A DNA stretch of 11,276 nt from a virus (taxonomy: Duplodnaviria > Heunggongvirae > Uroviricota > Caudoviricetes): positions 1 through 11,276 of the IMG/VR virus record IMGVR_UViG_2548876964_000017, one strand, 5' to 3'. Position numbers: made by a program. The stretch's first letter is position 1. Each line of letters opens with the position of its first letter. Shown piece after piece: positions 3,001-6,000 of this stretch.

Positions 3001-6000
3001 TTGCCGTGCATATTTTTCATGCAAATGTCACGTCCTGCTATTTTTCAGTCTTATAAATTTAAAACCATAGAAAAAATCAATTATGTTTTAAAAATGGATA
3101 GGTAAAGAATAACAAGTGACACAGATTCAAACCAAAATGGAAAAGGGTGGCAACCCACAAACGCCCACTCCACATCCATGACAATCCATACACAACACCA
3201 GATAACGTGGCAAATAATACAAGTAAAGCACCACCTGAATAGTGATAAAAACCAAACAACAAAGCCGCCACAATTAATGCAACCAATGGAGACGTTACTT
3301 CTGATAGCCGTGATTGAATATACCCTCTAAATAATGATTCCTCTGCCAGAGACACAAAAAACAAATTAGCCAATATAAACTCTGGCAACCACTCAGGAAA
3401 ATGAATCTCTGGCTTTAATCCACCAAAAAAAACAGCCAAAAACAGGATAAGAGGAACAGAGAGCGACAGAGCCCCCCACTTCCACAAAGACACTTCTGAT
3501 TTTACTTCTTTTTTAAACAAAGAAGATGTACACAGGACTAACAAAAATGGCACCAGCGCTTTATCAAAATTAAAATACATTGTATAGGGAGTACTTTGAG
3601 GGCCAACAGTAACAGAATTTAGCACTACAGGATTGTGAAACCCTGGCCATAGATGGAAAGATAATGCTATGGCTGATAAAACTATGCCAACTTCATATAT
3701 AGATTTAGCCCAGGCGTTATATTTCCAGTTGAACTTCAAAATAATAAAAAAAACGATTGTAGCAACAAAAAATAACACCGACCAATCAATAATATCATTA
3801 AGCACAGCCAGGACAACAGACACCGTCAACAATGAAAAAGCCACTACCTTATGCCAACTGAGAGTTGACAGTGACAGTACTAACACAATCCACATAAGCA
3901 CTCCTTTTATTTAATGATGAAGATTGATTATCAATATTTTCAATTCACCAGGCAACATTTTATCTACCTTCCACAATACATGACCATCAAAAAATAAACA
4001 TGTTAATTATAAACACAGAAAACATAACCCTCATCACTATATATCCCTACCGCATATCCATATCTAACCGGACATTCAGAGCCATAAGCATTCCTTCAAT
4101 AATACCTTCCGCTTTATAAAGCCTTTTACCAATAAGCCCATCAGAACATCTATGCTTACGTGCAAGAGCCATAAATGTCATTCCACCTACGTAATAATCC
4201 ACCAACAAATCGTGCAAATACTGATTATTCTTGTTTAATCGTGCCATACAACCACAAATTATCATGGCGTCATCATCAGAACACTGAGGACGTGATTTCA
4301 CTTTAGTCGGGATTAATCCTTTAAAACCAGCAGCTATCGAGGGCCATGTTACATCTTCATGATTATTTGCTGCCCATGCCCCCCATCGCTCAAGAACCAT
4401 CTGGATATCACGCGCCATCGTTACCACCTCTGATTTCGTAAATCTTCACGCCCAGCCGTCCACCTGGCACAGGCTGACCGCGCACAATATTGATTTCATC
4501 AAACTGCTCGTCATCAATGAGCACTTCCGCATGCGTCAGCGCATCCAGCGGTGCTTTCAGAATGTTGTCCAGGTCACGGCGGCGCTTATCCGGTGGTTCT
4601 GCAATAATTTTTATTGCCAGCCGTCCGGACAGGCTTAATTTCAGCCGCTGCTGGCGAACAATAAGCGCCACAGCCCGGCGATAACGCTCACCGGCTTTTG
4701 ATACAAAATATGTGCTGCCACGACGTCGCCAGTAGGTGTTCACCGTCGGCGGGTAAGGCAAAACAAACTCTATACGCATCAGTAACCTCTTTTACCCGAG
4801 CACGCCGGTTGCAAAAGCGTGATCAAGAAAACGAAAAATTAAATCAACCTGGGAACCATGCTTTTCTTCGAACGCCAGCGGATCCGCATGAAGCTCGTTG
4901 TGATGCTCCCGACACAGCGGTAGCGTGAAAATATCGTGGGATTTTGTTCCCATTCCACCCTGACCATGACCAATCAGATGATGAGGATCGTCCGCTGGCT
5001 TACCACAACACGCACACGGCTGTGTCTTTACCCAGCGTGTGTATTTCTCATTTACCCAGCGGCGACGTTTAGGTCGTTTCATGAAGGATTCCGGAGACTC
5101 CGGATCAACGGCAATGCTGACCACCGTCTTTTCCTGTGGTGGGTTCTGTTGCTGGTGGGTGTGAGGCGGTAGCGCAATATTTTTTGTGCGCTGCTTCAGT
5201 ATGCTGGTGGCGGTCTGTTCTCCCGGTATGATGTCGCTTTCACGGTATACGGAGCGGATTTTTTCCGCCGGTAATCCCAGAGAGCGACGCGATACTGCCT
5301 CAGGTAATGCGTCCACCACCTGATTGCAGACTGCCCACCAGGATAATTCAGCCAGCGATAATTCCCGCTCCTGCGTGCCATTCATTACATGGCGTATGAC
5401 GTCAATCATCCAGGCTGTCAGATTTTGTTGAGTAAGTTGCTCAAGTGATTCGGAGGTCTGGTCGCGCAGCTGGTTGTCGCAGTGCCAGCACAACACCATT
5501 GCGCCAGCACCGTAACTGTGAATAACGGTTTCGCTGTGATGATAATCGCCGTGTGGCCACTGGCAGGATTTCACGTGACGTAATAACCAGTCAGACAGTG
5601 CACCAGCGCCGCCAGCTGCACGAATCACCCGCTCATCGCTGAAAAATGGCAGCAGTGATTTATCTTCCGCCAGCGGCTGGCGAACAGCAGGAACCGCTCC
5701 AGATGGCAGCGCCCGCATGTTTTTCGGTTCCGGCTCCACCAGCACCCTGCCGCGATGAAAAACTGGCAATGATTCACGACCGGGCTTAAGGACCACCAGC
5801 CCGAGTTCCGGAACCAGAACAGGTCGAAGTAATACCCGCACATTACCTCCAGACGCGCTGACGGTAGCAGGCATGTGTCCGTGGCAGATGTGCACGAACA
5901 GGAAGATATACAGAAACGGTCCAGGTCAGACGATCAGCGTTCAGACTCCGCTCCACACGGACACCGCGACGCAGATACGCCTCTTGAAGCATATCTGCCT

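Follow-up and report, generated by a model that had tools for sequence, protein, structure and literature searches.

A CPBP-family intramembrane protease gene as candidate lysogen-expressed cargo behind the Q antiterminator of lambdoid prophages

We analyzed a stretch of 11,276 nucleotides (positions 1 to 11,276 of the IMG/VR record IMGVR_UViG_2548876964_000017, Caudoviricetes; hereafter the window) which represents part of a lambdoid prophage that reads on the minus strand. Directly downstream of its late antiterminator gene Q, the window carries a gene for a protein of the CPBP family (RefSeq name 'CPBP family intramembrane glutamic endopeptidase') that has the fold and the intact motifs of this family, is subject to purifying selection, is transcribed in the lysogen and occupies a conserved position. 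The explanation that we favor, with a probability of about one half, is that this gene encodes a lysogen-expressed cargo protease which modifies envelope or exported proteins and which was captured once and has been held after Q. In kind, the gene is unremarkable, and it has been catalogued before; the novelty of the present findings is modest and consists in the probable single capture, the long-term purifying selection, the faithful first-after-Q position across two Q families and a possible placement of the gene, in this type of prophage, within the constitutive leader of the late promoter.

Results and discussion

Identity and fold of the CPBP protein

The coding sequence is located at positions 3077-3895 on the minus strand and encodes 272 amino acids from an ATG at 3895, in agreement with the RefSeq annotation. 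An open reading frame (ORF) prediction tool placed the gene at 3077-3901 on the same strand, with a GTG start; the shorter form is preferred because the homologs all start with MW and because AAGGAG is found 5 nt ahead of this ATG. The protein matches the PF02517 (Rce1-like) profile over positions 3-92 of 93, with E = 1.4e-19 and a score of 70.6 bits where the cutoff is 22.4, so that the family assignment in a preliminary description of this DNA, made from the sequence alone, withstands a hidden Markov model comparison. The three catalytic motifs recognized there as intact, namely E185-E186-S-L-F-R190, F214-G-F-Y-H218 and H253-F-G-L-N257, are invariant in 24 homologs. The AlphaFold2 model (predicted local distance difference test score, pLDDT, 94.7; predicted template modeling score, pTM, 0.91) is a polytopic alpha-helical membrane fold in which the motifs are located in transmembrane helices.

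A search of PDB sequences with this protein gave no match and only fold comparison produced relatives, the best structural match being SpdC/LyrA of Staphylococcus aureus (6u0o), with 14% sequence identity. The identity to the type II CAAX prenyl endopeptidase Rce1 (4cad) is 17%, and, compared with Rce1, the protein carries extra helices at its N-terminus and contains a conserved loop specific to its family (residues 81-117); we know of no prenyl-CAAX substrates in bacteria. The viral structure library BFVD contained only weak matches (template modeling score at most 0.47), and the myxosortase and CTERM-sorting CPBP proteases (NCBIfam MrtX, MrtP, MrtC, MrtS and MrtJ) gave best scores of 19-46 bits against equivalog cutoffs of 75-435, which amounts to similarity at the level of the domain. 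The best NCBIfam match, also below threshold, is a fused ABC-permease/CPBP family.

The functions reported for bacterial CPBP proteins include peptide maturation, bacteriocin immunity, a role as bacteriocin receptor and the association with kinases or a peptidoglycan hydrolase independently of proteolysis (PMC9298176). SpdC lacks the catalytic residues and Abx1 of group B Streptococcus does not need them, whereas in the family of the window protein they are invariant; because this invariance extends over a family whose members are as little as 45% identical, an active protease is favored. SpdC, Abx1 and MroQ of S. aureus are, furthermore, encoded by chromosomal genes of Gram-positive bacteria, in contrast to the prophage cargo gene described here.

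Probable single capture and retention behind Q

To place the gene in its genomic contexts, we compared 43 prophage or viral-contig loci and 80 chromosomal loci (80 species). Full-length homologs (~270-276 amino acids, 45-55% identity) that share the invariant motifs and the conserved loop occur widely on chromosomes of Enterobacterales (Providencia, Proteus, Photorhabdus, Xenorhabdus, Hafnia, Serratia, Dickeya, Enterobacter and others), where they are native genes with a GC content equal to that of their flanks, unlike the AT-rich prophage copy. The chromosomal homolog directly follows a gene for a ModF-like ABC ATPase in 37 of the 80 species, with modE, gpmA, aroG and pnuC nearby, and is found in other contexts elsewhere. 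Genes for Q, RusA or DUF968 are near none of the 80 chromosomal homologs, nor do any other phage genes adjoin them. The ModF-like protein, a double ABC ATPase, is encoded in the same direction as the CPBP homolog in the 37 loci (within L018-L097); in the Hafnia loci (L005-L007, 4529-6918), the gap is 5 bp. The two proteins might be functionally paired; to our knowledge, ModF has no known membrane partner.

In a neighbor-joining distance tree, the Q-adjacent copies form one clade within the chromosomal family, which suggests that the prophage copies were captured once from this Enterobacterales family, whose members are often linked to modF. A PF06530 Q gene is present ~150 bp upstream of the CPBP gene in 40 of the 43 viral-contig loci, and all genomes with the Q allele and spacer of the window also carry the CPBP gene (572 of 572). 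The Q-adjacent position is retained by alleles of 58-63% identity from Escherichia coli and Shigella and by alleles of 83% identity from Escherichia albertii-type prophages, in which Q lies upstream and holin and lysozyme genes come next. At one locus, L136, an allele of 55% identity follows a lambda-type Q that belongs to an unrelated family, PF03589; this Q protein (2905-3708) has 267 amino acids and a weak match to a DnaJ-like zinc finger. Q and the CPBP gene show no co-divergence: Q proteins are 80-86% identical with or without a CPBP gene after them.

All prophage alleles consist of 272 codons without indels, and the ratio of nonsynonymous to synonymous substitution rates (dN/dS) is 0.10-0.24, even where dS is saturated. 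Because of these values and the invariant length, a decaying or hitch-hiking pseudogene can be rejected. In three IMG/VR contigs (L130, L135 and L139), the tblastn matches are partial and the copies appear to be truncated or interrupted. Among 50,697 deposited phage genomes, no CPBP homolog was found, tblastn included, and deposited phages with a Q protein 84-86% identical to that of the window carry other cargo in the slot.

Foreign composition and the post-Q cargo slot

The gene is far more AT-rich than the backbone, as the preliminary description had it: the GC content is 37.9% in the ORF and 28.5% in the spacer upstream of it, compared with 53.5% in RusA, 54.1% in DUF968 (~53% in the flanks) and 49.1% in the whole window. 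The gene thus combines a distinct composition with absence from otherwise related phages and with expression from the repressed prophage, the last seen in published transcript data (below), as is typical of morons. With regard to another moron feature, its own transcription signals, the gene is flanked by a terminator and a conserved promoter-like site, the latter possibly being the late promoter pR'.

Phages with related Q genes hold other cargo in this slot, namely a porin in 434 and ev207 and an ORF6N gene with an OB-fold gene in STEC307. Together with stx, these nmpC/ompD-like porin and ORF6N/OB-fold morons occupy the same interval as the CPBP gene, between Q and a palindrome/terminator segment that precedes the lysis genes, and they share with it foreign composition and variability between phages. 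Unlike them, the CPBP cargo, a different protein, has remained with Q despite deep divergence and a switch of the Q family. At its distal end, the slot is bounded by a ~100-bp backbone segment (2905-3005) that contains the terminator and a palindrome, TTTACGTACGTAAA. This segment is present in 83 isolated lambdoid phages (434, ev207-like and Stx-converting), where it separates the post-Q cargo from the lysis genes, and follows the ORF6N cargo gene in STEC307, which has two copies; the palindrome segment may bind a protein or belong to the late leader.

In STEC307 (L011, E. coli; 1941-3800), ORF6N-domain and OB-fold genes replace the CPBP gene, and a textbook promoter (TTGACC-17-TATATT) with a hairpin-T6 terminator is located immediately after Q, before the ORF6N cargo. 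In ev207 (L010) and 434B (L009), two GC-rich hairpins (~1930-1960 and 2030-2065) lie between the QuuD-like Q and the porin moron, which is in reverse orientation; the second resembles a bidirectional terminator, and the position of pR' is not evident from the sequence there.

Transcription in the lysogen

The evidence for expression comes from the literature (gene-level reads per kilobase per million, RPKM, and reverse transcription PCR, RT-PCR) and was not generated in the present analysis. In RNA-seq of strain EDL933 under 11 uninduced or stress conditions, the CPBP gene has RPKM values of 3-51, compared with 0-6 for Q, ~0 for RusA and 0-5 for the holin (Landstorfer et al. 2014, PMC4048457, Tables S2 and S4). 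Transcription increases ~8-fold from Q to the CPBP gene (RPKM 5 and 39, respectively, in lysogeny broth), exceeds background in 12 of 13 datasets (p ~ 0) and is not correlated with that of Q (rho = 0.06). Under sulfamethoxazole-trimethoprim, the rise was only modest; CP-933N was not among the induced prophages, and the repressor of the related Sp4 prophage has no SOS-cleavage domain. RT-PCR likewise detected the CPBP transcript in uninduced cultures. Expression in the lysogen, as suggested in the preliminary description, is therefore supported.

The promoter and terminator that the same description had attributed to the gene are both found, the terminator as a modest intrinsic one and the promoter with the reservation that it may be either private to the CPBP gene or pR' itself. 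The promoter-like site (TTGCCT-17-GATAAT) is weak taken alone because 14 such sites occur in the region compared with 7.4 +/- 2.6 expected; alleles of 83% identity keep it in a form closer to the consensus (TTGTCA-17-GATAAT, 10 of 12 matches). A direct repeat, ATTGAAAAT/ATTGATAAT, is located between its -35 and -10 elements. In phage 21, the Q-binding repeats are found between these same elements, with unrelated sequences (PMC6606751). A second promoter-like site, TGGTCA-18-TAAAAT, is, judging from the sequence only, an alternative candidate for pR'.

No intrinsic terminator (GC-rich hairpin with a U-run) was detected in the spacer between Q and the CPBP gene, so that the spacer promoters may include pR'. 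The homology of the window to other Q alleles ends at the Q stop codon, and an attempt to transfer pR' and the Q-binding element from ev207, 434B and STEC307 failed since the post-Q alignments with the window contain no homology beyond this codon. The Q-binding element of phage 21 (two copies of TGAGCA) is absent from the window as well, and pR' could thus not be placed. The terminator is kept downstream of every CPBP allele and is modest, with ~30% read-through.

The same gene in prophages of enterohemorrhagic E. coli

Of 5,426 complete E. coli genomes, 574 carry the same DNA, with at least 99% identity in 548 of these; the strains listed belong for the most part to O157:H7, O55:H7, O26:H11, O111, O103:H2 and O145:H28. 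One E. coli copy is plasmid-borne, and a few genomes contain the gene twice. In prophage Sp4 of the Sakai strain, the gene bears the tag ECs_1085 and the annotation 'phage CAAX amino terminal protease family protein'; psrA (ECs_1087) follows two genes downstream. The O157:H7 locus is 99.6% identical to the window over a 3,051-bp query from Q to the tRNAs and shares the neighbors Q, ECs1086, psrA and ileZ-argN-argO, with no substantive difference in the gene itself. Sp4-type prophages are ~99% identical to the window over positions 1-5853, beyond which the window prophage is mosaic.

The published primers for quantitative RT-PCR match the window gene exactly. In the published work, expression increased 2.7-fold on HEp-2 cells, and a deletion mutant no longer blocked the STAT-1 phosphorylation induced by interferon-gamma; the published deletion may be polar.

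Favored explanation and its alternatives

Under the explanation that we favor, an ancestral copy from the chromosomal Enterobacterales family, often found beside modF, would have been captured once and kept since then in the cargo slot directly downstream of a lambdoid Q. In the lysogen, the gene would be transcribed independently of Q from one or more sigma-70 promoters in the 151-bp AT-rich spacer, possibly including pR', with the transcript predicted to end at the modest terminator (2935-2914) apart from the read-through; upon induction, Q-modified polymerase would sweep through the gene as well. The protease would act on a lysogen protein that is anchored in the membrane or exported, and the STAT-1 phenotype would be an indirect read-out of this activity.

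Several observations weigh against this account. The published transcription start site table for EDL933 has no entry under the CPBP locus tag, and the promoter assignment is based on consensus matches, conservation and gene-level RPKM as opposed to a mapped start site. Complementation restored the STAT-1 phenotype only in part, its transfer to HB101 was likewise incomplete, and the tree behind the single capture carries no support values. Protease activity, the class of substrate and the benefit to the lysogen are points that we infer, and some CPBP proteins (SpdC and Abx1) work without proteolysis (PMC9298176, PMC3578759). The window protein could, following that precedent, be a protease-independent partner or regulator of another protein in the membrane, for example a sensor kinase or envelope enzyme. 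We consider this unlikely given that invariant catalytic residues in a family diverged to 45% identity would be unexpected if catalysis were dispensable, and that SpdC has lost the very residues that the present family keeps (PMC9298176).

The preliminary description had suggested superinfection exclusion or immunity. A protease that cleaves an ejection protein of the incoming phage or an inner-membrane entry factor would be compatible with an inner-membrane protein expressed in the lysogen from a prophage cargo slot, and with purifying selection in the prophage clade. However, no PADLOC-DB model matches the protein at E <= 0.1, and the name of the family is misleading: more than 1,000 Abi-domain proteins bear the label 'abortive infection protein' through historical mis-annotation, and less than 1% of them are encoded in bacteriocin loci (Firon et al. 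2013, PMC3578759). Moreover, the chromosomal relatives reside in a housekeeping neighborhood, the conserved modE-modF/gpmA locus in 37 of the 80 species, with the GC content of their flanks, unlike genes of defense islands, and the only reported experimental phenotype concerns host-cell signaling, so that anti-phage defense appears quite unlikely. The literature searched contained no phage-challenge results for the gene. Immunity to a bacteriocin, a microcin or a contact-dependent toxin has a precedent in CPBP proteins that confer bacteriocin immunity (PMC9298176) and would suit a stand-alone membrane protein enriched in enterohemorrhagic lineages that compete in the gut. Nevertheless, in contrast to self-immunity proteins of the PlnI and SkkI type, which have the cognate peptide gene alongside, the CPBP gene adjoins no gene for a bacteriocin, toxin or small peptide in the 43 prophage and 80 chromosomal loci. 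Its neighbors are Q, a 65-amino acid winged-helix ORF, psrA and lysis genes in the former and modF, gpmA and others in the latter, and the flanking intergenic regions are non-coding because their indels are non-triplet. Together with the scarcity of Abi-domain proteins in bacteriocin loci, these observations render immunity highly improbable; that there is no obvious partner gene, as had been remarked at the outset, holds for adjacent protein partners across ~120 related loci.

The location of the gene invites two further interpretations that involve the phage itself. The protease could process or restrain the holin, a membrane-tethered endolysin or a spanin, or ready the membrane for lysis: the gene is the first after Q and just upstream of the pinholin/endolysin cassette, a position kept across alleles of 55-100% identity and two unrelated Q families; holin and lysozyme genes directly follow it in the E. 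albertii-type prophages; Q-modified transcription must cross it, since there is no terminator between Q and the gene; and SpdC pairs with a membrane-bound peptidoglycan hydrolase. We regard such a lytic function as very unlikely, however, because the gene is missing from all 50,697 isolated phage genomes, many of which have closely related Q and lysis genes, related phages hold unrelated and even reverse-oriented cargo in the slot, the gene is expressed without induction and above the level of the holin, and its close relatives are regular chromosomal genes that lack phage neighbors. Alternatively, the CPBP gene could be a fixed 'first late gene' module within the leader between pR' and the terminator tR', with a phage-relevant role. 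This leader is normally short and constitutive, and in the present type of prophage the gene would lie inside it, given that no terminator precedes the gene and the first one follows it. If so, constitutive, Q-independent transcription from the late promoter would express a membrane protease in the lysogen, with Q reading through on induction, and a role such as control of envelope or lysis proteins would explain the linkage to Q through the change of Q family. As a general rule, placement within the leader is rejected by L136, where a strong terminator (3798-3823) separates Q from the CPBP allele and a canonical promoter-terminator pair precedes the gene; we view the module as an improbable alternative to a cargo protease.

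Layout of the window

In the minus-strand reading, the window comprises replication genes, a hok toxin gene, a gene for an OB-fold (BOF) protein, DUF968, RusA, Q and the CPBP gene, followed by the 65-amino acid winged-helix ORF, the gene for an AraC-like regulator, three tRNA genes and an esterase gene cut by the end of the window (Table 1). The preliminary description correctly located the CPBP gene between Q and the tRNAs, without mention of the two intervening genes, the 65-amino acid ORF and psrA. This ORF is also widespread in the absence of the CPBP gene. Two more small cargo genes are found in the nin-like region: one (6237-6581, minus strand) encodes a BOF/OB-fold protein with a signal peptide (PF04076, E = 2e-33), the other (6701-6913, minus strand) a type I toxin of the Hok/Gef kind (PF01848, E = 1e-22). 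A scan with Rfam revealed nothing beyond the three tRNAs, and the small RNA HnrS is not present in the CPBP-carrying prophage of the window. The tRNA at 1637-1712 on the minus strand is called tRNA-Met (CAT) by ARAGORN and is ileZ, a tRNA-Ile with a CAT anticodon, in the Sakai and RefSeq annotations; confusion of Met and Ile tRNAs with this anticodon is a known ambiguity of anticodon-based calling.

Table 1. Features around the CPBP gene in the window
Feature	Positions	Strand	Basis and remarks
Three tRNAs	1463-1712
psrA, AraC-like	1742-2455	minus
65-amino acid winged-helix ORF	2593-2790	minus	weak TrmB-like Pfam match; phrog_331, E = 6e-37; RPKM correlation
Intrinsic terminator, CCCGC-loop-GCGGG + T6	2914-2935	minus	5-bp GC stem, 6-nt loop; -9 kcal/mol
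Perfect palindrome, 14 bp, TTTACGTACGTAAA	2983-2996	minus	invariant in all alleles; ~45 nt before the terminator hairpin
CPBP gene	3077-3895	minus
Shine-Dalgarno sequence AAGGAG	3901-3906	minus	read from sequence, 5 nt 5' of ATG 3895; AAGGA kept in the 83%-identity alleles
Spacer between Q and CPBP gene	3896-4046	minus	151 bp, 28.5% GC; unique to this Q allele and the CPBP gene
Sigma-70-like promoter TTGCCT-17-GATAAT	3927-3955	minus	scan; 9 of 12 consensus matches
Second promoter-like site TGGTCA-18-TAAAAT	3957-3986	minus	scan; 9 of 12 matches; same spacer
Antiterminator Q (Q21/QuuD family)	4047-4418	minus	PF06530, E = 5e-52; PDB Q21 6p18, E = 7e-8

Implications

The CPBP gene carries little weight for the biology of phage defense, as the evidence points elsewhere. 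It is present in approximately one-tenth of the sequenced E. coli genomes, including essentially all major enterohemorrhagic lineages, where it adjoins known virulence regulators (psrA and pch) and is kept intact by selection, and a single paper links it to the suppression of interferon signaling, a link that was never resolved. Because the lysogen expresses it and because it descends from a conserved family of Enterobacterales envelope proteins, the gene would be a tractable candidate for the identification of a CPBP substrate in a Gram-negative pathogen.
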